The notes under the pieces were generated by a model. The model did not search any database and had not been told where the DNA came from. It saw only the letters and a list, made by a program, of their open reading frames with translations. A program made the position numbers and the translations under genes. DNA of 64,000 nt from positions 8,703 through 72,702 of the forward strand of contig JAFRSV010000011.1 of assembly GCA_017427405.1 (NCBI GenBank), given 5' to 3'. Shown here one piece after another: positions 21,329-56,233 of this stretch (position 1 is its first letter; every line of letters starts with the position of its first letter). The stretch comes from Alphaproteobacteria bacterium (GTDB taxonomy: Bacteria > Pseudomonadota > Alphaproteobacteria > Rs-D84).

Positions 21329-21382
21329 TTTGTATTATTGCCCTTGAAAACCGATAAAAATAATTCTATATTTATAACCGCT

Positions 21383-27235: not shown

Positions 27236-27316
27236 TCCGTCTTTGCCTGTGGCAAAGCCGCGATAGAGATTTCTCAATTATAATTGAAAAATCACCCACG
27301 CCGTGCTTGCATGGCG

Positions 27317-27624: not shown

Positions 27625-27689
27625 AAATCTGCATAACGATTCGCAAAAAAATGTCAAAAAAAAAAATAAAAAAAAGCAACTATTTTTTC

Positions 27690-27718
27690 TTGCCTTAGAT
27701 TTTGTATTTTTCTAAGAT
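27690..27718 (+). promoter_or_regulatory. Candidate sigma-70 promoter of the giant gene (TTGCCT-17 nt-TAAGAT), preceded by an A11-T-A8 tract
   Basis: Hexamers at 27690-27695 and 27713-27718. A-tracts at 27656-27675. RBS AAGGGAG at 27731-27737. Confidence 0.35.
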
Positions 27719-27742
27719 GAAAGTAAATGAAAGGGAGAAAAT

Positions 27743-30700
27743 ATGAAGAAATTCGCTAAAATCCTTGGTTTTCTGGGCTTTTTTGTGACACTTGCGACTG
27801 CCCAAATCGGCACCGCATGGGCGGATGGAGCATACTGTGGCTATGGATATGATGGGTACTATGGTTTGGGGCGTGATGAGGATGATTGTGCCAAATGTAT
27901 GGAAGATTTTCCGAACTATCCCAATAGCACGGGCATGTATAATTTTAGCGGGGATTTATGTTACAGTGCATGTTCTGGAACGTGTACGGACAGAAATGCT
28001 TACTTTCAAAGTGGTGGCACATACGGTGTTCCAGCAGGATCCTTGTTTTTTGTTTATGGGTTTGGTAGCAGAACGCAAAATTCATTGTTAAATATCAGTG
28101 GTCTTACGTGCGGTAACATTGGGGACTATTGTGCTGAAATTTTTGATTGCGGCAAGAGTACGTGTTCGGCAAATTGGAAGACCATCAATTTTGTAGATCA
28201 TAACAATACAACCTTGGGTACGCTTTACATTGTGTACAACAAGATATGGAGTACGCAGCAGACAACAGAATGTGACAATTGCACCGGAGATGGACGAAAT
28301 TATGCGGTATTTTATCCGGTGTTTCAAACACCAACAGCACCAAGCAGGGAAGGGTACACATTTTTGGGATATTCAAATCAACAAACCGGTGATAATATAA
28401 CTATGCCTGCGCAGAGTCATCATGGCGAAACTCTCTATTATGTATCATTAAATTATAATAATGCGACAACTGTTAGTGGAATTAGTGGTAATACGATCAC
28501 TCTTTACGCCCGTTATAGTCATGATGGGTGTGAAGCAAATTATTGGTATAATAGTCAGACAGAAGAATGTGTCCCGTGCGCCGATGGTTTCACAAGTCCA
28601 GGCGGATATCTGGGGCAAGAATCGTGTACCACTGAATGTCATGTAAATTGTACAGAGGCGCATGACCCCTCAAATGACTGTGTTTTGCCAGCGGTTGGTC
28701 ATTACAGCCATATAACTTTTTCCGGAACAGAATACGAGATAGGAATACCATCACAAGGCATTGAAGCAGAAAAATGTTATGATGAAAACAACAACGAGAT
28801 AACCAATCCATCAAATAATTCTGCCTATTGGTGCCCGTGGAGTTGTGACGGGTGTGAACCGGCAGGTTGTTATGACCTTGTAGGTGGAGAATGTGTTGCA
28901 AAGAAATTTATTGCGACCTATAAATGTGACGGTCAAAGCTCTTATACTTTCCAAGATCCAACATCTGGTAAGCCCACATATAACGAGGTTTATGATTTAT
29001 TTGATGTAACCGCGTCGGGTGGACCTGGGGCGTGTAACCCCCAATCAAACTCTGGACAAAGTTTTGCTGGCTGGGTTCTTGATATAGACAGTAACCAAAC
29101 GTTGCGCACGTATCCGGACAGTTTTGAATGGAAATGGTGTAAAGACGGGAACTTTAATGCTGCGTGGACTGACAGTTGCTATGAAGTCAGTTTTGATGAT
29201 GACACGAATGGTGGGCACCCAAGCGGATATCCGAATCTCACGCCTGGTACACATACGTCTTTCTATAAAAAATATAACGACACAGCATGGTATTCAGATA
29301 GTAAGTGTAGCGACAAAATAGAAATAGGAAGTGGAGTGAATCAAGTAAATGTCATAGGACATCTGCCTGGGAAAGAACATGCGACATTTACCGGGTATTA
29401 TGATGAAACCCAAAACCCTGATTTAAAGATTTTTGCCGGTGATAATGATACGCTCCAAGGTGTGTTGACAAACGATGGGGCAAGCTGGACGATAACTGGT
29501 AACACAGTATTGTACGCACAGTATACTTGTGTTGAAGGTTATGCTCCAAATGCCAGTGGCGATTGTGTTGATGACCAAATCGACGTAAAATATACCTGTG
29601 TTTCACCTGTTGATGGTGAACCAGACACCTATACATTCAATGATGACGCAACTTATGGTGCTGCGTACCCTGTTAAACCTGTTGGAACGGGTAATTACAA
29701 TGTGCCATGCGCATTTACTGGGTATGAGTTAGACAATGATTATGTGTGGAAATTACAAGATTATAGTGGCAATCCAAACAATCCGAACGGTGAATATGGC
29801 CCAGGCGCAGACGCAGGCAACACATTGCTTTCCACTGATTGGCAATATATTACGACCACACCATTGACGGAAATAGAATTTATTTTGAACAAGAATTTGT
29901 GGAATTTAAAAACATACACGGTTGAATATCGTTGCGGAAGCATCAAACCGGATGCCGATGTTTATACGGATTCCAGTGCTACATACGGTCAAACCTATAA
30001 CATTGCTGGTCAATTTGATCCAGTTGGTGGTAGCAATGTCACAGTTCAAGATTTCTTGGATAACAATTGTAAACCAGATGGTGGATTTGGTGCGTGGACA
30101 TTCCAAAATTGGACATTCACATGTCATGGTGCCAACACGGGTCCATATGTTACCAATGATCCGAGTTTTGGCACATGGATATATGACCACGACGACTGCT
30201 ATTTTACGGCAAATTGGGCCCAGACAGATTTTGAAATTATATTAGATTCAAATATATCGGATGGTTATATATCCAGTGGCAACAATGGTCCTTCGCTTGA
30301 TAGTGACCCAGACAAGCTTTACACCAGGTGGCGCGAAGGTGTGTATATTCGGTTGCCCCGCAATAATGCCAATATGATGACATCCAATGCGAATAACATA
30401 GAAAATCCTAAAAAGTATTATGCATTGACGATAAACGGTGGAACTGCGGGTGGCACCACAAATGGAACCTTCTCTTGGAATGGGGTGGATAATCTTACAA
30501 GCACAATCGAAACTGTCCAACTTACATTTACCGGCTTTTATGATGCGGATACCACAAACAATCCAAGACCGTACATAGGTACCGATGGACATATTACTAG
30601 CGAAGGTAATGATAAAGGTATTAGTTATGATGGCACGGGTGCAACACCATACACGTGGTATGCGCATTGGACGAATAATAGCGGGTCCATCACGTTACCA

Positions 30701-33700
30701 ACACCGGACGATATAACCGGATATGATTTCGGCGGTTGGATCTGCGTTGACGGTGAAAATAACGAGATTTATAATACCACCGCTAATCCAAACCAAAGCC
30801 TTACAGTGACCATATCAGAAAACATCACTTGTACTGCACAGTGGGTTGTTGCATGCCGGACGGTGACATTTAATGAAAATGGCGGAACGCCAAACGCACA
30901 ATATGGTACATATGACACTCGTTCAAAGGTTGTTGGTAACCCAATTTGGTACACCAATTCGACCTGTGGTGGTGGGATCCTTGTTCCAAATGTATCAAAC
31001 AACATTCCGACCAGGGGTGAACATGAACATTTTGTTGGATACAACACCGCAAGTGACGGCACTGGTGACGAAATCTTCGATGAAGATGGTGTACTGGTTG
31101 ATTCTAATTGGACAATTACACAAAATGCCACGCTTTATGCGCAATACGCTTGCGATGAGCCGTATCATATCAATCCGCAAACTGGTGAATGCGAGGTTTG
31201 TCCATCTGGTACTTTCTATAACCCGACAAACCCGAATCCAAGTTCAAACCTTTGTGATTCGTGTGATACATACATTCACGATCACGCAAGGGAATGGGAC
31301 GAAGCATGGGCGCTTGACTATACGTGGTCAAGTAATCCACCATATACATGGAGTGTAGATCAATGCTATCGTGAGTGCCGTGGTGAAGACAGTAACGAGG
31401 TTGATACATGCGATATATTCCAACTTACATCCACTGACATTAATAATAGAATGGAACAATTTTTGCCGGATGGATTAATAAATACTGGCGGTGATACAGG
31501 TAAACAAATTTCTTTCTTTGGTAATCAAAGAGTAAACATTAATACATGTAATCCCCAGTCTGGAATAAAATATTGTCCAGTTGGTTTGTTGGGTGATGCT
31601 GCGATAGCCACGGTCAAGCCGATTGCGGCCTCGGTGGATTTCCATATAGATCCAGACAATAGCCCGGAAGAGACAAAGTCGGTTTACATCGTTGGTGGTC
31701 GTAATCCGAGTATGGCGAATGGTCTTGTATTACAAACAGGTTATGCATGGAGTCAGGTCCGCGGTCCTGGCCAGAATTCGCCAGAGGTTAATCATGTCGT
31801 TGACGGGCAACCCATAACGTTTAACTATATTCACATCATATACCCCGCAGAGGCGCCACAGGCGGTTTCTCCCGCATGTTCCACATTTACTGGTTACGGA
31901 TTTCCTCAAAATCATCCAGAAGTGTCGACGTTCGGGCGTAATTTGACCACAGCGAATGCATCAGATATAATAAACTATGCCCAGACTGCTAACTCTGCGG
32001 AGATGAGCCCAATCGTAAATGACACCAATTCTCGTAATCTGTATGCACAGTACGATACGGGTGCTCAGTATAACTATTCTTACAATTGTAATTGCAGTGG
32101 CGATGGGTGCGGTGGTTCTGCACCAAGTGGTGGAACAATATGCGCCGGTGCCGACTTTACCCCGGCCACAAACACATGCACCAAAGGTAATTGTACATTC
32201 CTTGGCTGGTCGACCAATCCAGGGGCCACTGTACCGGAAACTCTACCAACAACATGGACGTATACGTCCAATCAGGTATTTTATGCGATATGGGGCAACT
32301 GTTCCGCACCAACGGCGAACATAGAATACTATTCTGGTAACACCCTGTTTGGTCAAGTTCCTTTGACAGTGACACCAACAAACAGTACCATTTATGGCAC
32401 ATTGCAACTTCCGACTGTGCCAGCCATAGATCAAAATATGCCGGCTACATATAATTGTGACGGTGCCACGTTTAATATACCGCAACAGGTTCAATATGTT
32501 ATAAATAACAATACTTATTCTGGTGTTCCAGTGTTTATAGATCCAGAAACATCTCAACCAATAGGTGAGGTGGTAAAATGGTGTACGGACCCAGACCTAG
32601 AAACCGGTTGCTATTTGCCGTATGAACTTAATCCAGCTAACTGTAACGATGTAAAACTTTACGCACAATGGAAGTGTGCCCAGGGCTATATGCTTCAAGA
32701 TAACAGGTGTGTAAGATGCCAAGATGATTATATTTGGAATTCGACAACGCAACAATGTGAACCGGCAACAACGGGTTGTCCTAACGGATTTCCGCACACA
32801 AAGACCGGATATAACTGGGGCACCGACCAATGTTATCGTATCTGTGGTTCACAGTCGGGCGACACTAGAACAGACTGTCGTATGACCACCGATATACCAT
32901 CAGGACACGGATTTGAACAATTCTTGACGGGGACACAGGCGGAAAAACAAATTTCATTCTATGGTAATGAACATGACGGTATTTATACATGCCAAGAAAG
33001 CACTGGGGCTGCCTATTGTCCGCTTGGATTGTTGAACGGCGTTAATATATATTCTGCGCACAAACCAATGTCGGCATCGGTAAAGTTTAACGGGACCGAG
33101 GACCAAAACATCGAACGCTATATCATTGGAAACCGCAATAGTCAGGCCAACAACATATCCCTTGGCGATGGTTTCGCATGGAGCCATGTCGTAGGCCGCG
33201 GCCAGCAAGGTTCGGTAATTGAAGGTGCTAATACATATCGCTATACATTTATTACATATCCGACGGATACGGCGCCAACGGCCGTATCGCGTGAACATTA
33301 TACATTTTTGGGATATGGTTATCCAGAGGACGATCCTGAAATAACGCCGATCCTTGCGAACCTTGCATTAACCACGGGTAGCAGTGGTAATGCGGCTAGT
33401 ATAATCAGTTATGCTAATAGCCATACTGGTGATAGTAATATGAGTCCAGTTATAAATGAACACCGCAACCTGTATGCACAGTATACGGCTGACGATACCT
33501 ATACCCTTACATATTCCTGTGGTGATGGTGGCGGCCAGGCACCAGCGCAACAAAGCGGTATATATGCAGGACAACCGAATATTCCAATAAGTACACCAAC
33601 CGGGTGTAACAGTTACGCAACTAATTTGCTTTCCAAATGGAAAGTCACAGGAACCGATAATTCCACATCTTATGATGATGTGTCGGCAAGTACCCAAAAT

Positions 33701-36700
33701 ATCACGTGGAACTATCCGGAAAGTGTGACCTTTACCGCAATTTGGGGTGGTGCGAATGAAAGGAATATAGATTACCGCAGAATTCCGGAAACCGATGCTA
33801 ACAATATTACAAATGCGGGAAATAAGTTAATTATGCCGGAATCTGGCATGCCGGAAAGTTTCACTTGTGGTGATGGAACAACACAGATCAATATCACCGG
33901 GCATCCACAACTTTACAATATGCATGGCGAGGTTGTTGGGGAATTAGTTGGCGACGTCACAGATTGGTGTGATACTGAAAATTCTGAAACCCATGAGTTA
34001 TCGGGTTGTTCCGAAACTCAAAGTTTTTCCAATAATTCGTGCAGTGATAAAGTTTTCTATGCGAAATGGCAATGCGCGGACGGTTATCATTTGAATGCCA
34101 CGGGTGATGACTGTATTACATGTGGGGCTGGTTATTATTGGAATAATGGTGATTGTGCCCCCTGCGAAAGTGGTTGGACCAGCAGGCCGCCATATAACTG
34201 GACCATAAATCAGTGTTATAAATTATGCGATGGCAGAAACGGAACCGCCGCAAAGACCTGTAGTGATAGTTTGACACCGACTTTATCAACCCTACCATAT
34301 TTTGCAAACAAGTTCTTGGATCAAGGTGACGACCCATACCAAATCACATTCTATGGTAATGATAATGCAGGCATTGATGTTTGCACAATGGACGAGGTTG
34401 CATATTGTCCCGCGGTGTTATCCGCCCTGGTGGCCAATACCCTTCCGGTTAACAAAACCAAGGCATCCACAATAACATTCAAGAAACAAGACCTTGCGGG
34501 TAATGCTGGAACCCGTTATCTTGTCGGATTTTTGGACATAAATGGCGACTATGTCCCCCAGAATGGTAAATTCTGGAGTCACATTGCAGGCCAGGGCCAG
34601 CAGATCACAGAGGGTTTCGATACTTATACAAAGATAATCTATCCGACAAATATAGCACCGGCGCCAAGTGATACCATAAACGATCCGTTGTTCACGGGAT
34701 ATTATGATGCGCAATCCGGTGGCAATCAACGTGTTGACGAAACACTTGGGTTGAGCAGTTCCAACGCGGTCGCATTTGCACAAAGTCCGTTATCCGCAAA
34801 CCAAGTCGGTTCCCGCACATTGTATCCGCAATATTGCGAAAATGGTGAAACATGGAACGGAAGCACCTGCACATCGCAGAGTTGGAATAATGTAAAATAT
34901 GTTTGTGGCAACCATGGAACGGAAGCTTCCGGATATAGCATGGAAAACACAGCAACATATAACGAACAGTATAAAGTTGCATATCAGACGTCTAACTTTA
35001 ATCAAATGATTGCATTTTGCGATGCCGATACAGGTTATGTATTTACTAATTGGAAATTAAACAATACTAATGGTTCGGTTGCACCATATAGTGGTAATAC
35101 CGGCGCTATCATCACATGGGATTTTACAACATTTAATCCGGCAAATACCCCAATCTTTACCGCACAATATGAATGCGATACGGATTATATTGCGAACGGT
35201 GATGTAAACAATGGAGGAACATGCGAACCTGTATCTGATGTTTGCAATGCCCAGTTACCAAATAACGCGAATGCACACATCATAGGTTGGAGTATGCCCG
35301 ACGGTACATGCATTTATACTATTCAATGTAATGCATGCATAAATTCCGATCCGGCAAATTACAGCTGTTATGTCCACGAAAATAGTGCATCTAACAATGG
35401 TCAATTTACGGTCACGGGTAATGGCACAGATGTTTTGGCAAATGCAATTTGTGCTCCGGCCGATTTCTGTGTCACATTAGATGATAATGGTGGCAGTGGT
35501 GGTATCGGCACCTTGTGTGAAACATATAATGTGGGGTGGCATAAATATGGCTCTGATTCGATTATATCAACCCTGAACCAATCAGATTTACCACAATGGG
35601 CTAATAACAGCCAAGTGTTTGCAGGGTACTGGACACTGGCAAGTGGTGGAAGCATGGAGATCGGTTCGGACGGAAACATTATTCCTGACCCTGTTGTGCT
35701 TACCGATAATAACCAAACTTGGCATGCCCATTGGGGCGATGGTACCGGATATACGGTTACGTTTAAATGCAATGGGGATACTGAATGGACCGATACCCAA
35801 ACGGTATACCCGCCACAGAACATAGATGTACCACAAACATCATGTTCGCGCACCGGCTATACGTTCACAAATTGGCAGGATACGACCAATAATGTCGTAA
35901 TTTCTGCAACCAATACAACATTCTTGTGGACTGGCGAATTTAATTCGGTTTTGACCCCAGATTGGACGGCGAATACATACGATGTGAAATATGTATGCAA
36001 CGGTGAGTCACAGACATTCCAGAATGGTGCAACATATGGTGTGAATTATGACGTAAAGAACCGCAGTGATCTTTCTATTGGTTGTACACCGCCGGCGGGT
36101 AAAGTTTTTGACAAGTGGGGATTAAGCAATAATGGGAGCACTGTCATAGAAACATACGCCGAAGGTGCACCGATTCATCCTTGGAATTACACAATTTCGG
36201 CACCAACCTTTACGGCACAATGGACGGATGGATGTTACAAAGTAACTTTCAATAATATCTTGTTTGGTGGACAAGATCCGGCAGGTGCTGCGGTAACGTT
36301 CTATAAAAAGGGCACAAACTGGTACGCATGGAATGATAGTTCATGCAGTTATCCGCAAACCCCAAATATTAGTTCATTACCAACTAAGACAAACGCAGAA
36401 TTTTCTGGGTACGATACCGATAACACAACCCCGGATGAAGTTCAGTTCGTGTTTGTGAGGTCGGGGTCTAATGCGGTGTTAACAACGTATGGTCAACAAT
36501 GGACTATTGATGATGATACAACATTATATGCGAAATACGTGTGTATTGATGGCTATACCCTTAACGGAACAACATGCGTCTTGGATTCTTCGAATTTCCA
36601 CACGATAACCCTTGACGAAAATGCCGGAGAATTTTATGGCGTAGCCAGTAATCCGAATGTTTTGTATACCATAGAGGGTATAACCCAAGCTTACACTGAT

Positions 36701-42700: not shown

Positions 42701-45700
42701 ATAGTGGCACCGACCGTGGATGAATCACATTGTCAAAATGAAGGTCAAACCTTTACTAGATGGAAGGCCATCAGACATCCCGCAATTACCATTCAGGCCG
42801 GTAATTCATACTATTGGGAACATCGTTTTGATGAAGATTTTACCCCAGATTGGACGGCTAATAACTATAATGTGAAATATGTATGCAATGGCGTAACCGT
42901 TGCAACAGACAGTGCAACATACGGTGCAACATATACTGTATTTAATCATAATAGTTTAAGTGGATGTACGGTGCCCGCGGGCAAAGAATTCGGCGGGTGG
43001 GGATTCAGCAATGACGGCATAACACCGTATTTGGGTGAATATTCTGACGGCGATCAATTCCCGTGGAACTACACGGTACCCAAACCAACATTTACGGCAA
43101 TATGGAGTAACTGCGGAATAGGCGAATACTGGGATGGGGAAAAATGCTATCCATGTCCAGAAGGTTTCCAAAACAACCCTAATGCAATCGGAATAGAACA
43201 GTGTTATGGTAATTGTTATTGGACCTGCCGGCCAGAGGGATGTCCAAGACCGCCATTGCCAGAAGGAATGTCTTCGTGCACATATGAACACGAAGGTGAA
43301 GAACAGCCTGGTATAATGTTTAATAATGGGTTGAACCAATGTTTACCCCAAGGTGAAACAAGTGTGCCATTGTGTAATAAAAACATAATTTGCGAAGAAG
43401 GTTACGATTTGTTCGGTGACGAATGTGTGGCAAGAAGTACATATACTATCATACTTGATTCTCGTATTATGGTTAATGGCGTGACTCAAGGAAATTCAGC
43501 GCGTCCGGCGATATTGTTCACGCGTTGGCATACTGGGGTATACAAAAATTCCTTGATGAGACCCGAAGACAAAATGACACCAACAAATAATCCGCTGAAT
43601 GATAATACACCAAGTAAATTCGTCAGGGTAACACTTGATGGTAATGGCGCGATATTTGCCTGGAATGGTACCGAAGGTCAACAGATAGTACAAAATATCC
43701 CACTTGATTTTGATGGTTTCTATGATGTTTCTGAAACTGACCCTGTAATAGGTAGAGATCGTTATATTACCACTTATGGTGATGCCGTTGGCCAGGCCGC
43801 TACTGCAGAACAAACATGGCATGCAATATGGGGTGAAGGTAATGTCCGTGTTCCGGTTATAAGTCGTGATGGTTATACTTTTGACGGTTGGTATACCGAA
43901 CGAGATGGAGGAACCCTTGTATCAAGGGGTGGTGATGTAAGTGTTTCACCAGATTATAACGTAACATGGTATGCACATTGGAGCATCGATCAAGATTATG
44001 TGACATATGACTGTGACGATGGTGATGGTGGCACCGGGGGTACTGGACAAGATACAGAACATCCTGTGCATTATAATGGGTCTTATACCGTCTTGCAGAA
44101 CATGATTGTGAACGGCGGGGTTGTTGATTGCCATAAGGATGCCGATGTATCCGCTGGAAGAAGATATCACGTGTTTGAAAATTGGACCCTCAATTTGAAT
44201 AACAGAAACTATCAACCTGGGTATCTATTCAATCCTTGGACTTTCACCGTCGATAACCCAACGTTCAATGCAAATTATAAAGAATGTCCAAATGGGTGGT
44301 ATTTTGACGGTTCGTGCAAACAGTGCCCATATGGCTATCCGTATTCCAACACAGATGCAACATTGCCACAGCATTGTTACAAGAATGATTGTGAACTTCC
44401 TTGTGCTCAGGTTTGCCCGCCGCGCGAAGCGCAAGAACCGGGTGTCCTTGGGTGTACTTACACCACGGTGAATTATACTGGCACGGAGTATTATGAAGGT
44501 TCCTGTAATGCCGCGGTCCAAAATTGTTCTTGGCGGGTTTGGTGCAATGAAGGCGCTGGTTATGTCTCTGATGCTAATGGTGAACATTGTGTAAGACAGG
44601 ATCAATATGAAATCACATTGGATCCAAATGGTGGTACGGTCGGTCAGGAAAAACTCTATACGATTCATAATACCGGGGTGTATTTGGATTCTGACCGGAC
44701 ACGGCAAATGAGTGCTTATAACAATTATTTGACCAATTTGCCACAGAAAAGTGCGGTTGCAACATTTGATTGTAATCCGGAATGCAGTGCTCCTGTGTCG
44801 CCTGTAAGTGTTGAACTGGCATTTAATGGATATTATGAAAGACAATCGGGTGGTGAAAAGTATATAAACAAATTTATGGACAATGGCGTTGCCAAGGGTG
44901 TCATTACCAGTGATGGTAATACAGCGGGCAAGGGCTATACCACTAATGCCACATGGTTTGCACAATGGTCGGAGGCATCAATCGGAAATTCGCGGTGGCC
45001 GGCCAATCCGACGCGTCCCGCCACGTCGTGTGGTGTGACATATGGATTTGTTGATTGGTATACCATGGCAAATGGTGGGACACCGGTTTCGTATAACACA
45101 CCGGTATCCGAAGATGTGACATGGTACGCCCATTGGTGCGAAAGTTGCCCGACCGGTGCAATAGCCAACGGTTCGTGCAGTGCGCCAAGTTGCAAGGCCA
45201 CATTTACGTGTAACGCCGGGTATTATTGGAACGCGGATGATTGCAGTTGCGTTCTGTCGCCAGATACAAGGTTCACATTGACGTATAAGCCAAACGGCGG
45301 AACACCAACACAGCCGAGAACACAAAGTTTGGCATACGGTGAAACGTTCACAACATTGGGTGGCGATACGTTTACCAAGAGTGGCGAAGTACTTTGCCGT
45401 TGGGATGAAGAAAATCACGCGTCATCCAATACATTCCCAGAGGCTGTTGCGGAACTTTCAACAGAATATACCTATCTCAATGAAGAAAATATAACGTTGT
45501 TGGCACGTTGGGCACAGTGTCAGTGCACCCAAGGTGCAGCAGGGGTCCAGGGTTGTTCTTTCTCGGTTGTGAATAATGCCTGTGTTCCGACTGTTACCTG
45601 TATGCCTGGGTACATTCCAAACGGAACACCGACATGTACCGGCGAATGCAATGCAACCTGTGATACATCCAATTCGTGCAGGCAATGCACAGCTGGCACA

Positions 45701-48700
45701 TATCAGGACGGCAATGAGTGTAAACCGTGTCCATCTGGCTTTACATCAAACGCCGGTGCGACATCATGTTATGGAAACACGATAACAATTGATTGGGATG
45801 AAAATGGTGGAAACCCGATTGATAATGGCAGTTGTCAGTATTGCATCAATGACAACAGTCAACCGGCATGGGCACAGTGCAACAGCGCAGATAACAATCT
45901 GACCTTGGCGAATGCACCGTCACATAGCAACTCTGCTATGCAATTCCTTAGGTGGAAATTGGCCAATGGTGACATTGGACTCGCGGGTGCATCCGTAATG
46001 TGTGACTTTACCCATGTTGGGGTGTATAGTGGAACAAGCACCGCAATTCAGGCACAATGGAACGAATGTAAGTGCAATTATCCATTGAATCCGCATGTGG
46101 CGTGGTGTCAGGCATGGTTTGCAGACGGCGAATGTAAGTATATGAATGGATGTGATGCCGGATACGAATCTGATCCGTTAACGGTGTATACCCCGGTTGC
46201 GGTATGTAATCCGAAAAATTATAATATAACATATAATTGCGGCGTTGGCGCAACCGGCACACCGTTAATTTCCGCGGATACGGCCACATATGATGATACA
46301 TATATCGTAAAGAATGCGGGTGGGGTAAATTGTCAAAAGGTCGGTTTTAATTTTGTTGGTTGGTTATTCGATGGTGACAATTACTTGCACCAGGCGGACG
46401 ACCGTATCACATGGACATATACATCTAATAAAACCTTTACCGCACAATACAGTCAATGCGCGGCGGGTGAAGTATGGGTAGATGGCGCGTGCAAACCATG
46501 TACTTGCTCACAGGATAATTGGAGTTCTGGTGTCGCATCATGTACGGCAAGTCCATCGTCGATTAGCACCTGTTCTGCGGTTGTCACTTGTGACACTGGT
46601 TATAATAATCCGCAAGGGAATTGCAATGGTGCGACATGTTCGGCCCAGTGTGACCAGATTCAATCCAATGCCATTTATGAATGCGGAATTGGCGCAACAG
46701 GTCCTGCGCCGGCCACGGAAACGATGAACTATGGTGCGACACACACGGTCAAAGGCCAGGCAAGTTGCGCCAAATCTGGTTACACCTTTAACGGTTGGAA
46801 CTTTACTGGGACAAATGAAAATTATAACCCCGGCGCAACGGTTCAATGGAATTATGAAACGAATCAAACCTTTACAGGTAATTGGTGCGAAAATTGTGTT
46901 CAACCTGATCATGGGGAATGTTCCTTGAATGCGGGTGTTGCCGGAATGTGTTCATACAATTGTAATTGTAATTCTGGTTATACACTTGTTGGGGGTGTAT
47001 GTACCGCGTACCCGGTATGCGAACCTGATGATTCATTAACAATCACATACCGTCCAAATGGTGGTATGAATAATGGCGTCCTTGGGCAACCGGTGATACA
47101 AAATGTCACATACGGTGCCGGGTTTATAACCAAACCGGGAACCATATTTACCAAGAAAAACAGTATTATCACCGCATGGGATCATGTCGAAGGTGGCGAT
47201 TATCCAGAATTGAATCGTTGGTATGTATACAATACCGATATTGACACCATATTGAACGCACATTGGGAACAGTGCACATGCGCCACAGGCAACGGCGTGT
47301 CATCTTGTACAACAAGTTCTACAAGTGAAAATGCTTGCGCCTGCGCGGGTGAATGTGCTGCTCGTTACATAAACGGCGGTTGTAGTTGCAACGGAACAAG
47401 TACCTGCACACAAACTTGTACGGAATGTCCGGCCGGGTACATATCCAACGCAGATCAAACAGAATGTGTTATTTGTCCAGAAAACACGTATCAATCGGGC
47501 AATACTTGCGAACCGTGTCCAACTGGCTACACATCGCCGGCGGGTTCGACATCAATTGACGCATGCTATGATAATCCGATTCCTTATACGGTGCACTATT
47601 CGTCAAACAATGGTTTGGATCAAACGGAAACTCAACCTGTCACATATGGGGCAACATTTACAACCCTTGGCGGAACGACATTCACGTATGATAACCACAT
47701 CATGACCCGTTGGAATAAAATAAGTGGCGGTGACTATACAGAATTGTCGCACCCATACGAATACGGTGTCCAAGAAGATACGTTCCTAAAGGCACAATGG
47801 GCACAATGTACATGTGCCACGGGCAATGGGGTGTCATCTTGTACAACAAATTCTACAAGTGAAAATGCTTGCGCTTGCACGGGCGAATGCGCCGCGGGTT
47901 ATGTAAAGGGTGAGTGTTCTTGCTCTGGAAATACATGCACGCAATCTTGCACAAAGTGCGCGGATAATCAGGTTGAAATAAACGGTGTTTGTGTTGATTG
48001 CTCTTGTTCGGCCGATGGTAATGGGGTTGTTTCGGGATGTGGATTTGTATCAAACGAAAATAACGTTTGCAATTGGGGAACAACAACTTGCGATACCGGA
48101 TACAACAATCCTGGGGATCTTGTCTGCACGGATCTTGTACATAACAATAATTGCACAGCAACATGTACCTTGGGTGGTTCGAACGCAGTTTATAAATGTG
48201 GTACCGGAATTGGTGCGGGGTACAGCACATATGTAAACTATGGCGCAACACACACAATCCTGACGAATGCGTTTGTTGGATGTTACCGTGATAATTCAAC
48301 GTTCGCGGGTTGGGCATTCAATGGCGATAACACCATATACTTTGATAATGTTGGTGCAACGGTCGCATGGAATTATACAACTGACAAGGAATTTGAAGCA
48401 AAATGGTGTTCAAATTGTCCTGTTGTTGAACATGGAACCAACCTGTTGACCATCCCAGAACCGGGTTATTGTCGTTGCGATTTGACATGCGATACGGGGT
48501 ATCATGTGGAAAATGGCGCATGTGAACCGAATGTTTATCCGAATGAAAACGGTATCACATACAAACCAAATGGTGGAACACCAAATCAGAATTATACGCA
48601 ATCCGTGACATATGATGCACCGTTCACAACGCTTGATTGGAGTGTGGAACATTATACCAAGGCGCACCATATCTTAACACGTTGGGCTGTTGAATCCGGT

Positions 48701-49876
48701 GGCGTGGGAACATTCGATGGTGGTTATGCCGCCCGTGGTACGGAATACACATATCATACGGACGGCGCAACGGTACTTGCCGCGGATTGGACCGAATGTG
48801 CGACCGATGAAATATCATTGAACAATACCTGTCGCCAATGCGGTTGTGCAACCGGTACGGGTGCGGCATCATGCGGAACACTGTCAACCGATGATGATAC
48901 ATGCACATGGGGGCCGGTAAGTTGCCAAACCGGTTATGTGACCCCGGTATTGGATTGTTCAAATGATACCACAAATTGCACCGCATCTTGCACCGCATGT
49001 GGTACCACACAGGTCGAAGTTAATGGCACTTGTACAGATTGCGAATGCAGTAAGGGCAATAATGGTGCTGGTGTCATTTCGGGATGTGTATTTGCATCGA
49101 ACAATGGCAATACCTGCAACTGGAATCCGACGACGTGCAAACTTGGGTATGGTAATCCGAATCTGACCTGTGATGATTCTGGGTACAACAATAATTGCAC
49201 CGCATCGTGCACGATATGTGATGCGGGATACTATGGTCCGGATGGTCTTGAATGTATACAATGTCCGGACGGTTATACATCCTTGGCCGGCGCAACATCA
49301 ATAAGGGAATGCTTTATTGATCCGAACAGTTGCGGGCCGGATGAACACATCGAACACGGCGAATGTGTAAACAATACGCGTGCATGTTCCATCCCGAATG
49401 CAACCAGTGCGGCCCGCATTTGGAATCCTGCAATCGGAACATACGGCCCATGCACGGTTGTGGAATGCGATACAGCCAACGGATATCACGAATCCGGCAA
49501 CGCATGTGTCCGGGATACTTGCGTCGTTGCACACGGCAGTGCCGAAAGCGAATATAGCGGTGGCCAATGGGAATGCTTTGTGACAAAGTGTGATCCGGGT
49601 TATGAACCAAGTTCGGATTATAAGTCCTGTGTTGAATGTGCAAATCGTTATGTTGATGGCGATATCGCGGTCAGCAGTTATGTATCTGAATGCGAAATCG
49701 CCGCATGTATGTACCAAGGTCAAAAGTACACATTAGAAGGAAACGAATGTGTTCCGATTTGTACCGCGGATAGGTTTACCCGTGAAGATCCGAGCAATCC
49801 AACTGGTACAATACAATGGGATGAACGTACCAAGAAATGTATCCGAACCTGTAAGCCGGGATATAAAATGTGGTAA
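27743..49876 (+). CDS. Giant (7377-aa) secreted or surface Cys-rich repeat protein: Listeria-Bacteroides (InlB B-repeat/Flg_new)-like units plus ephrin-receptor-like (GCC2/GCC3) Cys motifs
   Basis: Uninterrupted 22,134-nt ORF. Signal peptide MKKFAKILGFLGFFVTLATAQIGTAWA. Recurrent (V/I)TF..NGG ... GY(T/A)F.GW(Y/S) ... LYA(Q/K/H)W units, for example 35750-35960 and 43864-43982. C..CP.G(T/Y)Y......C.PCP.G(F/Y)TS.AGATS..C motifs at 45677, 47465 and 49208. Confidence 0.85.
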   Translation: MKKFAKILGFLGFFVTLATAQIGTAWADGAYCGYGYDGYYGLGRDEDDCAKCMEDFPNYPNSTGMYNFSGDLCYSACSGTCTDRNAYFQSGGTYGVPAGSLFFVYGFGSRTQNSLLNISGLTCGNIGDYCAEIFDCGKSTCSANWKTINFVDHNNTTLGTLYIVYNKIWSTQQTTECDNCTGDGRNYAVFYPVFQTPTAPSREGYTFLGYSNQQTGDNITMPAQSHHGETLYYVSLNYNNATTVSGISGNTITLYARYSHDGCEANYWYNSQTEECVPCADGFTSPGGYLGQESCTTECHVNCTEAHDPSNDCVLPAVGHYSHITFSGTEYEIGIPSQGIEAEKCYDENNNEITNPSNNSAYWCPWSCDGCEPAGCYDLVGGECVAKKFIATYKCDGQSSYTFQDPTSGKPTYNEVYDLFDVTASGGPGACNPQSNSGQSFAGWVLDIDSNQTLRTYPDSFEWKWCKDGNFNAAWTDSCYEVSFDDDTNGGHPSGYPNLTPGTHTSFYKKYNDTAWYSDSKCSDKIEIGSGVNQVNVIGHLPGKEHATFTGYYDETQNPDLKIFAGDNDTLQGVLTNDGASWTITGNTVLYAQYTCVEGYAPNASGDCVDDQIDVKYTCVSPVDGEPDTYTFNDDATYGAAYPVKPVGTGNYNVPCAFTGYELDNDYVWKLQDYSGNPNNPNGEYGPGADAGNTLLSTDWQYITTTPLTEIEFILNKNLWNLKTYTVEYRCGSIKPDADVYTDSSATYGQTYNIAGQFDPVGGSNVTVQDFLDNNCKPDGGFGAWTFQNWTFTCHGANTGPYVTNDPSFGTWIYDHDDCYFTANWAQTDFEIILDSNISDGYISSGNNGPSLDSDPDKLYTRWREGVYIRLPRNNANMMTSNANNIENPKKYYALTINGGTAGGTTNGTFSWNGVDNLTSTIETVQLTFTGFYDADTTNNPRPYIGTDGHITSEGNDKGISYDGTGATPYTWYAHWTNNSGSITLPTPDDITGYDFGGWICVDGENNEIYNTTANPNQSLTVTISENITCTAQWVVACRTVTFNENGGTPNAQYGTYDTRSKVVGNPIWYTNSTCGGGILVPNVSNNIPTRGEHEHFVGYNTASDGTGDEIFDEDGVLVDSNWTITQNATLYAQYACDEPYHINPQTGECEVCPSGTFYNPTNPNPSSNLCDSCDTYIHDHAREWDEAWALDYTWSSNPPYTWSVDQCYRECRGEDSNEVDTCDIFQLTSTDINNRMEQFLPDGLINTGGDTGKQISFFGNQRVNINTCNPQSGIKYCPVGLLGDAAIATVKPIAASVDFHIDPDNSPEETKSVYIVGGRNPSMANGLVLQTGYAWSQVRGPGQNSPEVNHVVDGQPITFNYIHIIYPAEAPQAVSPACSTFTGYGFPQNHPEVSTFGRNLTTANASDIINYAQTANSAEMSPIVNDTNSRNLYAQYDTGAQYNYSYNCNCSGDGCGGSAPSGGTICAGADFTPATNTCTKGNCTFLGWSTNPGATVPETLPTTWTYTSNQVFYAIWGNCSAPTANIEYYSGNTLFGQVPLTVTPTNSTIYGTLQLPTVPAIDQNMPATYNCDGATFNIPQQVQYVINNNTYSGVPVFIDPETSQPIGEVVKWCTDPDLETGCYLPYELNPANCNDVKLYAQWKCAQGYMLQDNRCVRCQDDYIWNSTTQQCEPATTGCPNGFPHTKTGYNWGTDQCYRICGSQSGDTRTDCRMTTDIPSGHGFEQFLTGTQAEKQISFYGNEHDGIYTCQESTGAAYCPLGLLNGVNIYSAHKPMSASVKFNGTEDQNIERYIIGNRNSQANNISLGDGFAWSHVVGRGQQGSVIEGANTYRYTFITYPTDTAPTAVSREHYTFLGYGYPEDDPEITPILANLALTTGSSGNAASIISYANSHTGDSNMSPVINEHRNLYAQYTADDTYTLTYSCGDGGGQAPAQQSGIYAGQPNIPISTPTGCNSYATNLLSKWKVTGTDNSTSYDDVSASTQNITWNYPESVTFTAIWGGANERNIDYRRIPETDANNITNAGNKLIMPESGMPESFTCGDGTTQINITGHPQLYNMHGEVVGELVGDVTDWCDTENSETHELSGCSETQSFSNNSCSDKVFYAKWQCADGYHLNATGDDCITCGAGYYWNNGDCAPCESGWTSRPPYNWTINQCYKLCDGRNGTAAKTCSDSLTPTLSTLPYFANKFLDQGDDPYQITFYGNDNAGIDVCTMDEVAYCPAVLSALVANTLPVNKTKASTITFKKQDLAGNAGTRYLVGFLDINGDYVPQNGKFWSHIAGQGQQITEGFDTYTKIIYPTNIAPAPSDTINDPLFTGYYDAQSGGNQRVDETLGLSSSNAVAFAQSPLSANQVGSRTLYPQYCENGETWNGSTCTSQSWNNVKYVCGNHGTEASGYSMENTATYNEQYKVAYQTSNFNQMIAFCDADTGYVFTNWKLNNTNGSVAPYSGNTGAIITWDFTTFNPANTPIFTAQYECDTDYIANGDVNNGGTCEPVSDVCNAQLPNNANAHIIGWSMPDGTCIYTIQCNACINSDPANYSCYVHENSASNNGQFTVTGNGTDVLANAICAPADFCVTLDDNGGSGGIGTLCETYNVGWHKYGSDSIISTLNQSDLPQWANNSQVFAGYWTLASGGSMEIGSDGNIIPDPVVLTDNNQTWHAHWGDGTGYTVTFKCNGDTEWTDTQTVYPPQNIDVPQTSCSRTGYTFTNWQDTTNNVVISATNTTFLWTGEFNSVLTPDWTANTYDVKYVCNGESQTFQNGATYGVNYDVKNRSDLSIGCTPPAGKVFDKWGLSNNGSTVIETYAEGAPIHPWNYTISAPTFTAQWTDGCYKVTFNNILFGGQDPAGAAVTFYKKGTNWYAWNDSSCSYPQTPNISSLPTKTNAEFSGYDTDNTTPDEVQFVFVRSGSNAVLTTYGQQWTIDDDTTLYAKYVCIDGYTLNGTTCVLDSSNFHTITLDENAGEFYGVASNPNVLYTIEGITQAYTDEDHNNPFDRLNENGFPRKYAKVTFHFCDGDDNSCDLPSTQNVIKNAYFTFGGFYVQHPDESDRYISADGFITTLGGNVAAGLASDTTWYAVWNDYGTVAHSDWQSNPTPPSGYAFVGWYTAANCGGTQVTSSYQFTTPDTDLYACWSQNVFTVTYDCGTGNGGTQSDTQSHPTTGSAYTVLPNGTTNGGVVTCNLDGQGFAGWKFSQDTGVNPYNAGDTIIWQVGYSNETLTAQYRRCETNEVLVNGVCYPECEDKTCTIPNSQYDNGCPDHDPQYPNDGSMHCTYSDPAIVQGYYIDNEHTTCLYANGANQGSPINEGYCPETPVCNPGYTWSTNPWGCIPDPNATYTIQFICEQNGTPITTPQTVHYGDSITVPSNSVCTNNPGYSYSQWEATQYNNPATLPAQGTTYQYTWNQTHGETFIADWNNQGDIFKMTLNPSGGNPGSDFIGTLWERYNDGFYRNNDDGILSDLVEMFNANQLPTFEANNFNGYKTSEGYDRVIFNSITGKWEPVAAAISSNETWYAQWNPCGDYQYYDNGCHECEQEYHENMHPSVHTDCYKSCNTCSDPVTCPAMGQPGVTGCNYDHNSNNYNGYIFWQPTPNNICLDVNRDPIMCDYEVNCADGYYQSSDHKSCIGNDYQITLDSQHGDICGGSFAGNNSNPTILYTQYGINGNIWLNSTHSGTPMYHDGIYERLYANPTKSASVTFNGNGGTVIGQTFQTATFEFGGFYQVQNGAGAQYINNTTSGTFGGQLQEAGLNAARTIIGVQTWYAKWTGGSITLPSVQRDGYPFLGWYKGTYVGAERVGDAGDQYTPSCANETLYAQWSSTPNSYNISYHDDNAQTPLHFNVNANSHCSPTYYQYGTGAQISCSLAQFATNNPNWHVVFKGWCTNANGTGCSVTSPYFVIGPTEIGDKDYYALWDCVDGYHVDDTTHTCKPNTINLNYVTQYGSAPTQPSSCTYGESFNLPGALTYSGQQFQYWQTNGATGYNQHNGGAEIQCTPQYLGGTGGHNSTATITAVWQSWNTLCPAHLQTSPNPHATLLSNPAPYVNGNNKCVYTIKCSSCVGSNYYDCYTNGDSANNSGIFTYEGNINDSHALDGVVCDPATYTAVYKCGDGTPNIEYLDNEHIITYDGTYYVLNNVIPCQSTNAQFNGWTFNGNPSYGVYTGGTQISPWRYRGITPVFTAHYGQCGAGEVLVDGECETECRVSCTYPGAPNASPMNQPCPSGNTYPEGTTCNYDINSNPSQAGFAPETDPDACLTISRPHTQIQANPCEVSVVNCPTYYTWNPGTGQCEGKTFLVRLDLNDGEPGSSNVSQIFEQYGYGWSKTESDFDPYLYLDPETELPHWRDETKIFNGFWTSSTGGALRIQGSGFVSENGVNPLSPITLTSNGQTWHAHWRDNDGPFTVTFKCDENSAPINGYNQTNVTYNSYINVPPKSECATDGSTFTQWRGRNHGVVITAGNYPTQYRWAYHHGEEFIPDTMDVYHVELRPGDNAMNGSITELWEVYGYNWYKNSDLTNVVTSLSGSELPTRTGYSFAGYENENGEERGRFNGSAWLSPSATTINTNEIWTAQWSVCAAGYYYNQETGGCNLCPDGYDQNPHAIGQNQCYFSCSEDCNWNDQIAASCSIPHATSYEPDMIAYPGKHYWGYSYCSLERWAQPHPQGSIPNCDCIPTACEPGYVLVGRICVEDSHWKIVLNSNSLNGESSYPSVLYTWHNRGVYLTDEYTDQYLMEYNRHPLYRKPTNYATVEFNLNGAGATLEWGGRVYNYPATMNQSVDFRFRGFYDTATGMSQYINNQGEGYITPEGNSEGKRAEYDQTWYAHWQAQAMAQLPVPSRPGYRFDGWYDLLGNQLTEGTLIDGNKIVYARWIDDIVTVTLNSSSCNPSNIPLGQLYQKYNVGWSKSQNGEFMPNLTLEPEDLPTPTNQDYIFLGYYDTQNGRNQVVTSNGTVIARPEYEENKTWYARCNINNGPFTVTFRCDENSVPVQPYTVDYGDRIVAPTVDESHCQNEGQTFTRWKAIRHPAITIQAGNSYYWEHRFDEDFTPDWTANNYNVKYVCNGVTVATDSATYGATYTVFNHNSLSGCTVPAGKEFGGWGFSNDGITPYLGEYSDGDQFPWNYTVPKPTFTAIWSNCGIGEYWDGEKCYPCPEGFQNNPNAIGIEQCYGNCYWTCRPEGCPRPPLPEGMSSCTYEHEGEEQPGIMFNNGLNQCLPQGETSVPLCNKNIICEEGYDLFGDECVARSTYTIILDSRIMVNGVTQGNSARPAILFTRWHTGVYKNSLMRPEDKMTPTNNPLNDNTPSKFVRVTLDGNGAIFAWNGTEGQQIVQNIPLDFDGFYDVSETDPVIGRDRYITTYGDAVGQAATAEQTWHAIWGEGNVRVPVISRDGYTFDGWYTERDGGTLVSRGGDVSVSPDYNVTWYAHWSIDQDYVTYDCDDGDGGTGGTGQDTEHPVHYNGSYTVLQNMIVNGGVVDCHKDADVSAGRRYHVFENWTLNLNNRNYQPGYLFNPWTFTVDNPTFNANYKECPNGWYFDGSCKQCPYGYPYSNTDATLPQHCYKNDCELPCAQVCPPREAQEPGVLGCTYTTVNYTGTEYYEGSCNAAVQNCSWRVWCNEGAGYVSDANGEHCVRQDQYEITLDPNGGTVGQEKLYTIHNTGVYLDSDRTRQMSAYNNYLTNLPQKSAVATFDCNPECSAPVSPVSVELAFNGYYERQSGGEKYINKFMDNGVAKGVITSDGNTAGKGYTTNATWFAQWSEASIGNSRWPANPTRPATSCGVTYGFVDWYTMANGGTPVSYNTPVSEDVTWYAHWCESCPTGAIANGSCSAPSCKATFTCNAGYYWNADDCSCVLSPDTRFTLTYKPNGGTPTQPRTQSLAYGETFTTLGGDTFTKSGEVLCRWDEENHASSNTFPEAVAELSTEYTYLNEENITLLARWAQCQCTQGAAGVQGCSFSVVNNACVPTVTCMPGYIPNGTPTCTGECNATCDTSNSCRQCTAGTYQDGNECKPCPSGFTSNAGATSCYGNTITIDWDENGGNPIDNGSCQYCINDNSQPAWAQCNSADNNLTLANAPSHSNSAMQFLRWKLANGDIGLAGASVMCDFTHVGVYSGTSTAIQAQWNECKCNYPLNPHVAWCQAWFADGECKYMNGCDAGYESDPLTVYTPVAVCNPKNYNITYNCGVGATGTPLISADTATYDDTYIVKNAGGVNCQKVGFNFVGWLFDGDNYLHQADDRITWTYTSNKTFTAQYSQCAAGEVWVDGACKPCTCSQDNWSSGVASCTASPSSISTCSAVVTCDTGYNNPQGNCNGATCSAQCDQIQSNAIYECGIGATGPAPATETMNYGATHTVKGQASCAKSGYTFNGWNFTGTNENYNPGATVQWNYETNQTFTGNWCENCVQPDHGECSLNAGVAGMCSYNCNCNSGYTLVGGVCTAYPVCEPDDSLTITYRPNGGMNNGVLGQPVIQNVTYGAGFITKPGTIFTKKNSIITAWDHVEGGDYPELNRWYVYNTDIDTILNAHWEQCTCATGNGVSSCTTSSTSENACACAGECAARYINGGCSCNGTSTCTQTCTECPAGYISNADQTECVICPENTYQSGNTCEPCPTGYTSPAGSTSIDACYDNPIPYTVHYSSNNGLDQTETQPVTYGATFTTLGGTTFTYDNHIMTRWNKISGGDYTELSHPYEYGVQEDTFLKAQWAQCTCATGNGVSSCTTNSTSENACACTGECAAGYVKGECSCSGNTCTQSCTKCADNQVEINGVCVDCSCSADGNGVVSGCGFVSNENNVCNWGTTTCDTGYNNPGDLVCTDLVHNNNCTATCTLGGSNAVYKCGTGIGAGYSTYVNYGATHTILTNAFVGCYRDNSTFAGWAFNGDNTIYFDNVGATVAWNYTTDKEFEAKWCSNCPVVEHGTNLLTIPEPGYCRCDLTCDTGYHVENGACEPNVYPNENGITYKPNGGTPNQNYTQSVTYDAPFTTLDWSVEHYTKAHHILTRWAVESGGVGTFDGGYAARGTEYTYHTDGATVLAADWTECATDEISLNNTCRQCGCATGTGAASCGTLSTDDDTCTWGPVSCQTGYVTPVLDCSNDTTNCTASCTACGTTQVEVNGTCTDCECSKGNNGAGVISGCVFASNNGNTCNWNPTTCKLGYGNPNLTCDDSGYNNNCTASCTICDAGYYGPDGLECIQCPDGYTSLAGATSIRECFIDPNSCGPDEHIEHGECVNNTRACSIPNATSAARIWNPAIGTYGPCTVVECDTANGYHESGNACVRDTCVVAHGSAESEYSGGQWECFVTKCDPGYEPSSDYKSCVECANRYVDGDIAVSSYVSECEIAACMYQGQKYTLEGNECVPICTADRFTREDPSNPTGTIQWDERTKKCIRTCKPGYKMW

Positions 49877-52875: not shown

Positions 52876-52881
52876 AAAAAA

Positions 52882-52904
52882 ATTCCCCAAACGGGGAATC
52901 TTTT
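52882..52904. terminator. Bidirectional terminator between the mla-like operon and rne
   Basis: ATTCCCC-AAAC-GGGGAAT flanked by an A9 run and a T-run. Confidence 0.65.
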
Positions 52905-56179: not shown

Positions 56180-56233
56180 TGCACCATCCATCCCTTGCAC
56201 CGCGGAATTTTTTTTGATATAATACCCACCGAA

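Follow-up and report, generated by a model that had tools for sequence, protein, structure and literature searches.

A 7377-codon gene as the largest allele found in a family of variable, cysteine-rich exported proteins of gut Alphaproteobacteria

We analysed a window of 64,000 nucleotides from an alphaproteobacterium of the lineage Rs-D84 (assembly GCA_017427405.1, contig JAFRSV010000011.1, positions 8,703 to 72,702), which carries a single 22.1-kb gene for a 7377-residue cysteine-rich repeat protein, hereafter the giant gene and the giant protein. Judging from sequence comparison, the giant gene is the largest allele found of a multigene family that is specific to Candidatus Enterousia and its relatives. 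The alignments indicate that a promoter motif, a signal peptide and a C-terminal domain are the constants of this family, while the variable body between them recombines. On balance, and with a little more than even confidence, we favour a reading in which Sec exports the product, disulfides lock it, and it serves at the surface as an adhesin or coat that the C-terminal domain anchors or sorts. We infer its surface location, disulfide bonding and adhesion or coat function, as well as the anchoring or sorting role of the C-terminal domain, from the features described below.

The distribution of the family is narrow. One genome per GTDB species was scanned with an alignment of the C-terminal domain, and all 25 loci recovered are in metagenome-assembled genomes (MAGs) labelled Candidatus Enterousia or uncultured (alpha)proteobacteria; their named sources are the rumen or gut of cattle, yak, buffalo, goat, sheep or deer. 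The first-pass annotation, made from the sequence of the window alone, had assumed a diderm alphaproteobacterial host, and the Candidatus Enterousia MAGs at the related loci, together with the Mla and AMIN-amidase genes in the window, bear this out. Enterousia (GTDB order Rs-D84) are widespread, uncultured gut alphaproteobacteria with genomes of ~0.75-1.0 Mb that lack respiration, the tricarboxylic acid cycle, complete glycolysis, flagella and most biosynthesis, and they have been proposed to be obligate symbionts or parasites of a partner not yet known (PMC12306168). The giant gene occupies ~2.2-3% of the genome; at 2-3% of so small a genome, it must pay for itself.

The family is recognised by its C-terminus. 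Nine large homologues of 3306-6458 aa, none of them informatively named, are 31-50% identical, and all nine share a Cys-rich C-terminus of ~215 aa with the pattern ...CMYQGQKY...C(I/V)RTC(N/K)PGYKMW. Among homologues whose bodies share just 30-50% identity, the C-terminal domain is 51-84% identical. We searched a profile of this domain against 1.84 billion representative proteins and obtained 667, 409 and 233 representative clusters at E<=1e-3, 1e-10 and 1e-30, respectively. In nearly all of the best 150 of the 667 clusters the match ends at the last residue of the protein, most commonly with [PDE]G[YF]xxW-COOH, which gives the terminal motif G[YFW]xxW. These best 150 include 146 newly retrieved representatives, 69 of which (253-6213 aa) carry both a Sec-type signal and the terminal motif; the remainder, which do not have both, look fragmentary. 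Across the family, proteins that are full length span 742-6458 aa. Residues 7159-7377 of the giant protein score 376.6 bits against profile A1, which itself includes this sequence. A 278-aa C-terminal query returned nine unnamed fragments and nothing else, and no description of this protein family was found in the literature searched. The first-pass annotation had reported no recognisable anchor or secretion domain, which holds for catalogued domains but overlooked this conserved C-terminal domain of ~160-215 aa.

The domain has two parts. Profile positions ~60-213, corresponding to aa ~7220-7377 (nt 49400-49873), have no significant internal copy in the giant protein, and positions 1-60, which are TNFR/Ephrin-like, recur within it. 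In P0018, P0027, P0026, P0040 and other proteins, a sub-domain at profile positions ~37-140 is present in 7-16 tandem copies, so part of the C-terminal domain is a reusable Cys-rich module of ~100 aa. An AlphaFold2 (AF2) model of the domain shows a chain of short beta-hairpins with a predicted local distance difference test score (pLDDT) of 67, and the best Foldseek matches are tandem EGF antigens (Pfs25, Pvs25) and TNFR ectodomains, none at E<1e-3. When 30 family members were scanned against Pfam, the only families recognised were Flg_new, TNFR-like and Ephrin_rec_like; PF07699 and PF23091 are each present in 4 of the 30, with best values of 1.3e-19 and 1.6e-6. No enzymatic passenger was found among these 30 members, which is consistent with a structural or binding protein. 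Its position and conservation make the C-terminal domain the obvious candidate to anchor or sort the protein. At locus L027, a second large Cys-rich open reading frame (ORF) at 2869-6627 (+), with a signal peptide and at least 1252 aa before it runs off the contig, is directly downstream of a family paralogue and may belong to a different surface-protein family.

At the other end of the giant protein, an in-frame stop upstream of the ORF ends at position 27730, and the ATG at 27743 is therefore the earliest possible start. It is followed by a signal peptide with K2, K3 and K6, a hydrophobic core and an AWA/D cleavage site (TAWA/DGAYC, cut at the slash). This is the only hydrophobic 19-aa window in the giant protein and is near-identical in eight of the nine large homologues, which upholds the Sec signal initially proposed. 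An AxA-type cleavage site is seen across the family, and the N-terminus of the giant protein is not conserved family-wide in an alignment of homologues. The mature protein would have 7350 aa, a mass of 802 kDa and a pI of 4.3; the full product contains 357 Cys residues (4.84%), and T, G and N are also abundant.

Motif, hydrophobicity and profile scans agree with the earlier statement that a barrel, LPXTG, RTX repeats and a transmembrane (TM) anchor are absent. No lipobox ([LVI][ASTVI][GAS]C) is present at the cleavage site, and the Cys at +1 that a lipoprotein would have is missing; neither LPXTG nor a second hydrophobic segment or TM anchor, the marks of sortase- or PEP-CTERM-type proteins, was found outside residues 4-25. 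A single isolated GGxGxD match, which we attribute to chance, accompanies the Sec signal and does not suggest an RTX protein. The giant protein has no Pfam or NCBIfam match to barrel, two-partner secretion (TPS) or type IX secretion system (T9SS) families, and a type 5 autotransporter is not indicated either, with the C-terminal domain modelled as short hairpins and no partner gene nearby.

The body of the giant protein is built from repeats. Flg_new (PF09479) is the sole Pfam family recognised in it, with three of four segments above the cut-off of 27 bits (32.5, 88 and 54 bits; best 4.4e-25 at 88 bits), and TIGR02543 is the sole NCBIfam match (37.1 bits, cut-off 20.95). We counted the repeats with profiles built from the protein's own units, which gave ~42 Flg_new-like units: 18 full two-cysteine units of ~70 aa each (VxYxC..G...C..GxxFxxW...FTA), 20 more of the form GYxFxGW(Y)...(L/W)YAxW, and four 'TYKPNGG' units. 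The same profiles gave at least 14 Cys-rich connectors of the CxxCxxGY type. The dozens of Flg_new-type units and the Cys-rich connectors between them that the first-pass annotation had described were thus both recovered. PF07699 (Ephrin_rec_like), a profile that it had named for checking, gave no match in the giant protein, although some homologues pass; P0006, for example, matches Ephrin_rec_like/TNFR-type Pfam families. TNFR_ELAPOR1 (PF23091) reaches 18-20.6 bits in the giant protein, below its cut-off of 33.2, and the short Cys connectors scanned alone had no Pfam match.

In addition to these units, we observed an 'F module' of ~240 aa, which is present in three copies in the body with one further partial copy close to the N-terminus, and in two to three copies in most of P0001-P0009. 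The F module has no Pfam match and no PDB sequence match, and a 1400-aa body segment likewise matched no PDB sequence. The AF2 model of the F module, the only model to hold a Flg_new-like tail, has a low pLDDT of 62 and no significant Foldseek match. Toward the C-terminus the Cys density rises to ~8% across the last 1600 residues.

The body is also where the alleles differ. At one chromosomal slot, flanked by genes for Lon-like, TsaB-like, GNAT and PIF1 helicase proteins on one side and by mla or RNase E/G genes on the other, the length of the product ranges from 927 to 7377 aa across species, the allele of the window being the longest seen. Residues 500-800 are 73-89% identical to P0001 and P0002. 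In the hypervariable body (aa 1200-5500), into which the strongest Pfam Flg_new matches fall, the giant protein is mostly 30-55% identical to anything, with isolated blocks of higher identity. The last 1200 residues consist of blocks that are 80-99% identical to differing alleles (P0001, P0002, P0005, P0006, P0007, L011). Synonymous divergence (dS) in these blocks is 0.30-1.17, compared to 0.09-0.24 in the flanking genes, which indicates exchange with divergent alleles and not merely faster amino-acid change. Surface proteins that are exposed and diversify typically show such an allele mosaic with raised dS. The GC content of the giant gene (0.42-0.47) is the same as that of its flanks, so a recent horizontal transfer is not indicated.

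The third constant of the family is found upstream. We aligned upstream regions by eye, noticed a promoter-like element and derived from it the pattern CTTGCNTT-N9-13-TTTTTCTA. The pattern is present once in the window, with 0 expected by chance, and exactly once in each of the 18 loci (18/18) that contain a family gene start. It is always immediately upstream of the family gene, also at paralogues, and nowhere else in 41 loci. A ribosome-binding site (RBS) motif of the GGGAG type, AAAGGGAGAA, follows the element and is kept upstream of most homologues whose start region was read; the RBS first noted before the giant gene is confirmed. A scan of the region upstream of the giant gene with the sigma-70 consensus found no promoter, because only 8 of 12 consensus positions match. 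The promoter proposed in the first-pass annotation thus fails against the consensus and survives on comparative grounds, as the conserved motif precedes every family gene start that we fetched.

Just upstream of the promoter-like element, poly-A tracts (A7, A11 and A8) are located at 27645-27675; an UP-like role is possible for them. Both assemblies that cover the tracts have them in identical form, so slipped-strand phase variation through them is not indicated.

In the reading that we favour, the giant gene would be transcribed from the family-specific promoter and translated from its strong RBS, and the protein would be exported by Sec with the signal peptide cut after AWA. Oxidative folding in the envelope would turn the ~42 Flg_new-like units and the EGF/TNFR-like Cys-rich connectors into a fibre of ~800 kDa that is long and resists proteases. 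This fibre would be shown on or shed from the cell surface and would serve as an adhesin or coat towards the partner or host of a metabolically dependent bacterium. The constant C-terminal domain, ending in G[YF]xxW-COOH, would anchor or sort the protein, while the body between the conserved ends would diversify by unit duplication and by recombination between alleles. A surface fibre is suggested because the literature regards Flg_new as a domain of beta-grasp type that belongs to adhesin-like proteins and is enriched among the microbes of animal guts (PMC9723798), because giant proteins occur in partner-dependent bacteria (bioRxiv 10.1101/2023.11.21.568195), and because a dependent lifestyle has been proposed for Enterousia.

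Several points weigh against this reading. No outer-membrane route was found for the giant protein, which is without an autotransporter barrel and without TPS, type I secretion system (T1SS), T9SS, sortase or lipobox features; secretion genes were not found in the window, nor was a conserved gene partner beside the paralogues. A secretion partner at the paralogous loci is likewise unsupported, since their downstream neighbours are unrelated housekeeping genes. No specific ligand-binding domain was found in the giant protein, its surface exposure is inferred, confidence is low for both AF2 models (pLDDT 67 and 62), whose fold matches are not significant, and an overall dN/dS below 1 does not demonstrate positive selection. 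The oxidation of 357 cysteines is also a gap in an anaerobe that is reported to lack respiratory chains (PMC12306168), and no Dsb genes are present in the window.

The alternative closest to the favoured reading, from which it differs only in the final function, is a protective or variable surface coat that is not an adhesin and that shields the cell from proteases, antibodies, phages or grazers; the analogy is with Cys-rich variant surface proteins of gut protists, and recombination between alleles together with the several paralogues would supply the variation. We regard this as possible but rather unlikely. The multigene family, whose members have the promoter motif, the signal peptide and the C-terminal domain in common while the body varies, the recombination mosaic of the giant gene, the high Cys content and acidic pI, the strong RBS that suggests high expression, and the weak fold matches of the C-terminal domain to the tandem EGF surface antigens Pfs25 and Pvs25 and to TNFR ectodomains all speak for it. 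Yet we saw no switching mechanism: the poly-A tracts are identical in the assemblies compared, and the surroundings yielded neither silent cassettes nor invertible elements. One fibre of 800 kDa would be a costly coat, and Flg_new is usually associated with adhesion (PMC9723798).

A separate and equally tentative proposal concerns the route to the surface. The C-terminal domain could be the sorting or anchoring signal of an undescribed route that takes very large, disulfide-rich Rs-D84 proteins across or onto the outer membrane, and this route might be coupled to a co-transcribed MCE system that scavenges lipids from the partner. If true, the route would be a functional analogue of the T9SS C-terminal-domain pathway in genomes below 1 Mb that lack the classical pathways for large adhesins.

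We compared the giant protein with known systems. It contains a known repeat, Flg_new, and is therefore not categorically new. It shares this repeat type and the format of a very large extracellular gut-microbe protein with the Flg_new/Listeria-Bacteroides repeat proteins (the InlB B-repeat; gut Firmicutes, Bacteroidota and methanogens). However, the Flg_new proteins of other lineages have neither Cys-rich connectors nor the conserved C-terminal domain and belong to monoderms or archaea with other anchors; the Firmicutes matches P0010-P0013 contain 0-0.8% Cys, compared to 4.8% in the giant protein, and the conserved cysteine pair of its 18 two-cysteine units sets them apart from other Flg_new proteins. 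RTX-type adhesins (the LapA, SiiE and MpIBP class) are of similar size, have a long stalk of tandem domains and mediate surface adhesion in diderms. They differ in having no Sec signal, C-terminal RTX nonapeptides with a T1SS signal, and adjoining ABC/MFP/TolC genes, whereas the giant protein has a Sec signal, one chance GGxGxD and an Mla/MCE neighbour instead of a T1SS.

T9SS cargo proteins of Bacteroidota follow a comparable plan, in which a Sec signal at the N-terminus precedes a passenger that varies and is often huge, and many otherwise different proteins of one lineage have a conserved C-terminal domain in common. Their C-terminal domain is an Ig-like sandwich of ~80 aa, in contrast to the Cys-rich beta-hairpin modules of ~160-215 aa found here; no T9SS C-terminal-domain model in Pfam or NCBIfam matches the giant protein, its host is alphaproteobacterial, and T9SS is not known from Alphaproteobacteria. 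The variant-specific surface proteins (VSPs) of Giardia and other protist surface antigens of the Ephrin_rec_like, EGF and TNFR type resemble the family in being multigene, Cys-rich and modular proteins of the gut lumen with a variable body and an invariant C-terminus. Members of the family carry the VSP-related Pfam families PF07699 and PF23091, although the giant protein itself is below the cut-offs; unlike VSPs it is bacterial, lacks a transmembrane tail and has interleaved Flg_new units, and we found no evidence of VSP-like mutually exclusive expression in its family. The giant proteins of epibionts and Omnitrophota are similar in that a very large repeat protein is made by a bacterium thought to be attached to or dependent on another cell; the epibiont of Chlorochromatium aggregatum reportedly has one of 36,805 aa. 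Their domain content is unrelated to that of the giant protein, and the giant genes of Omnitrophota are near loci resembling type II secretion systems or type IV pili (T2SS/T4P; bioRxiv 10.1101/2023.11.21.568195), none of which was found beside the Enterousia genes. From these comparisons, the giant protein differs from every catalogued class considered in its two-cysteine Flg_new variant interleaved with EGF/TNFR-like connectors, in its unannotated C-terminal domain common to hundreds of proteins of one order, in its family-specific promoter, and in its minimal-genome diderm host, which has no recognisable export route for it.

The genes downstream raise another alternative, in which the giant protein and MlaE-MlaF-MlaD-lipoprotein form one functional module, with the fibre contacting a partner membrane or host lipid source and the co-transcribed MCE-type ABC transporter carrying the scavenged lipid over the envelope of a bacterium whose own lipid synthesis is limited. 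All four genes match their Pfam families (PF02405, PF00005, PF02470 and PF03886) above cut-offs, as expected of an Mla/MCE operon. At 16 of the 25 GTDB loci, as well as at L007-L010, mlaE-mlaF-mlaD-lipoprotein begins 6-30 nt behind the family gene; the linkage persists in loci whose MlaE is as little as 66% identical, and also in those with a rearranged upstream flank. In the window the mlaE RBS, AAGGA, overlaps the stop codon of the giant gene, no terminator-like site is present between 49876 and 49889, and the first hairpin follows the lipoprotein gene; the giant gene, mlaEFD and the lipoprotein gene are thus probably one transcription unit closed by that hairpin. MCE systems import lipids in mycobacteria and chloroplasts. 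Rs-D84 genomes are also reported to be without lipid biosynthesis pathways (PMC12306168).

Nevertheless, the adjacency is not universal. At L016, L017 and L024 the gene is in the same slot with RNase E/G directly next and no Mla operon, and none of the paralogous loci is linked to Mla; we therefore rejected Mla as a universal partner. With RNase E/G 93-100% identical among them, all the loci belong to a single narrow clade, and synteny alone accounts for the linkage. In diderms, a cluster of mlaEFD and an auxiliary lipoprotein gene would be expected to have a housekeeping role. The organism may also retain fatty-acid synthesis, since the window contains, at 59918-61660 (+), a single 580-aa ORF that fuses AccD-type (zinc ribbon plus carboxyltransferase) and AccA-type acetyl-CoA carboxylase domains. 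A functional coupling of the giant protein to Mla is accordingly an improbable reading, which we keep as an open minority hypothesis.

A giant protein that stays inside the outer membrane, as a periplasmic or envelope scaffold possibly involved in envelope maintenance with Mla, seems to us slightly more improbable still. It would fit a protein whose only export feature is a Sec signal, for which no outer-membrane translocation feature or partner was found, and whose gene has the same orientation as an envelope lipid-transport operon and is probably transcribed together with it. On the other side, an internal scaffold would not be expected to range from 927 to 7377 aa at one slot or to have a mosaic structure, the repeats of the giant protein belong to a type linked to adhesins (PMC9723798), and an 800-kDa string of roughly 100 small modules would, by our estimate, be far longer than the periplasm is wide.

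Since the gene is so long and repetitive and comes from short-read metagenome assemblies, it could also be a chimera, a collapsed repeat or a decaying pseudogene, and the base-by-base comparison with other assemblies covers it except for nucleotides 36998-39888, but we give this explanation next to no credence in view of the agreement between assemblies, the lack of long near-identical DNA repeats, the intact and constrained frame, and the intact homologues of 3306-6458 aa in other species. The 7377-aa product is called in at least five assemblies (ERZ28018705, ERZ27256819, ERZ28018698, SRR12529383 and ERZ28653997). The 5' 9.25 kb of the giant gene together with 510 nt upstream are identical between two loci, and the 3' 10 kb (7.8 kb in L006) are gapless with 100% identity or at most two mismatches in six loci; the sole cluster of differences is in L002, at a contig end within the RNase E/G gene. 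No internal DNA repeat is longer than 142 nt (80% identity), and the protein repeats are mutually just 25-50% identical, so a repeat collapse is not expected. Against the related-species allele in L011, three segments of the giant gene have a dN/dS of 0.22-0.28, compared to 0.02-0.11 for mlaE, the lipoprotein gene and RNase E/G. The giant gene is under purifying selection; it is coding and constrained, yet it evolves faster than its neighbours. The 7377-codon frame was thus rightly taken for a genuine gene. The coordinates of the features are collected in Table 1.

Table 1 Features of the giant gene and its surroundings, in positions of the 64-kb window
Feature	Position	Strand	Basis and remarks
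Giant gene	27743..49876	+	ORF listing: 7377 codons plus stop, ATG start, no interruption
Family-specific promoter-like element	27689..27718	+	-35 TTGCCT 27690-27695, 17-nt T-rich spacer, -10 TAAGAT 27713-27718
Ribosome-binding site (Shine-Dalgarno) AAGGGAG	27731..27737	+	From sequence; 5 nt 5' of ATG
Sec-type signal peptide, aa 1-27, MKKFAKILGFLGFFVTLATAQIGTAWA, cleaved before D	27743..27823	+	Hydrophobicity scan; near-identical in P0001-P0008
F module copy 1, aa 1191-1442, Cys-rich head and divergent Flg_new-like tail	31313..32068	+	Self-profile, 378 bits
F module copy 2, aa 1681-1919	32783..33499	+	Self-profile, 310 bits
F module copy 3, aa 2141-2369	34163..34849	+	Self-profile, 299 bits
Hypervariable body, aa ~1200-5500, alternating Flg_new-like units and Cys-rich connectors	31340..44242	+	Per-100-aa best-match table
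Cys-dense C-terminal third, aa ~5600-7158, allele mosaic	44540..49216	+	Per-100-aa table, blocks 80-96% identical to different alleles; 14-29 Cys per 250 aa
Conserved C-terminal domain, aa 7159-7377, ending CKPGYKMW-COOH	49217..49873	+	Alignment A1, 70% mean column identity
mlaE-like permease	49889..50731	+	PF02405, 9.2e-68; ATG 12 nt past giant stop
mlaF-like ABC ATPase, probable start 50731	50716..51495	+	PF00005; gene call in L001
mlaD-like MCE protein, probable start 51492	51474..52268	+	PF02470; gene call in L001
ABC-transport auxiliary lipoprotein	52270..52875	+	PF03886
Terminator-like hairpin, bidirectional, first 3' of giant gene	52877..52904		Terminator scan
CACTAAC heptamer sites	12530-12652, 21288-21314, 25591-25719, 27084-27110, 27593-27606, 56005-56182		

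Several observations concern the rest of the window. Between the terminator of the tRNA-Met gene (27297-27318) and the promoter of the giant gene there is a GC-rich stretch of ~280 nt (27320-27600) with a G8 run and hairpins, which is missing from the equivalent spacer in L017 and L025. The upstream spacer contains no Rfam family except tRNA-Met, and a 100-aa ORF at 27303-27605 that overlaps the GC-rich stretch has no Pfam match. A tandem heptamer, CACTAAC (searched as CACTAACCACTAAC), is present at 17 sites with at most two mismatches, compared to 0.15 expected in the window. The sites are intergenic and just upstream of gene starts, except for 25591-25604, which is within the 5' end of the PIF1 ORF; the genes behind them are the lon-like gene, the divergent PIF1/MFS pair, tRNA-Met, the giant gene and the amidase gene. 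The number of exact copies differs between L001 and L003, and the heptamer may be a genome-wide regulatory or promoter-associated repeat.

The remaining genes of the window are housekeeping genes, genes of an anaerobe type (rubrerythrin, flavodoxin, peroxiredoxin) and genes of a diderm envelope (Mla, AMIN-amidase); a gene for a TolC-type outer membrane efflux protein (OEP) is present in the related locus L007. The Lon-like protein of 600 aa (21338-23140, +) has substrate-binding, AAA+ and lid domains, and a protease domain was not matched. A short Lon of 585 aa is also called in L010, L036, L038 and L039, so this appears to be a conserved protease-less Lon. A 171-aa ORF at 62154-62669 (-), in an otherwise housekeeping region whose GC content is lower (0.39), matches Phage_lysozyme (PF00959, 5.7e-28).

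Even if none of these readings holds, the giant gene is still a new variation on the theme of the giant repeat adhesin. EGF/TNFR-like Cys modules are unusual in an exported bacterial protein, especially in an anaerobe without a respiratory chain, and they raise the question of how disulfides are formed. The tight link to an MCE transporter offers a lipid-scavenging hypothesis. The C-terminal domain provides a search key for the surface repertoire of these bacteria and a bait for their export or anchoring machinery, and the giant gene family is the best current handle on the interaction, itself a proposal, of Enterousia with a partner.

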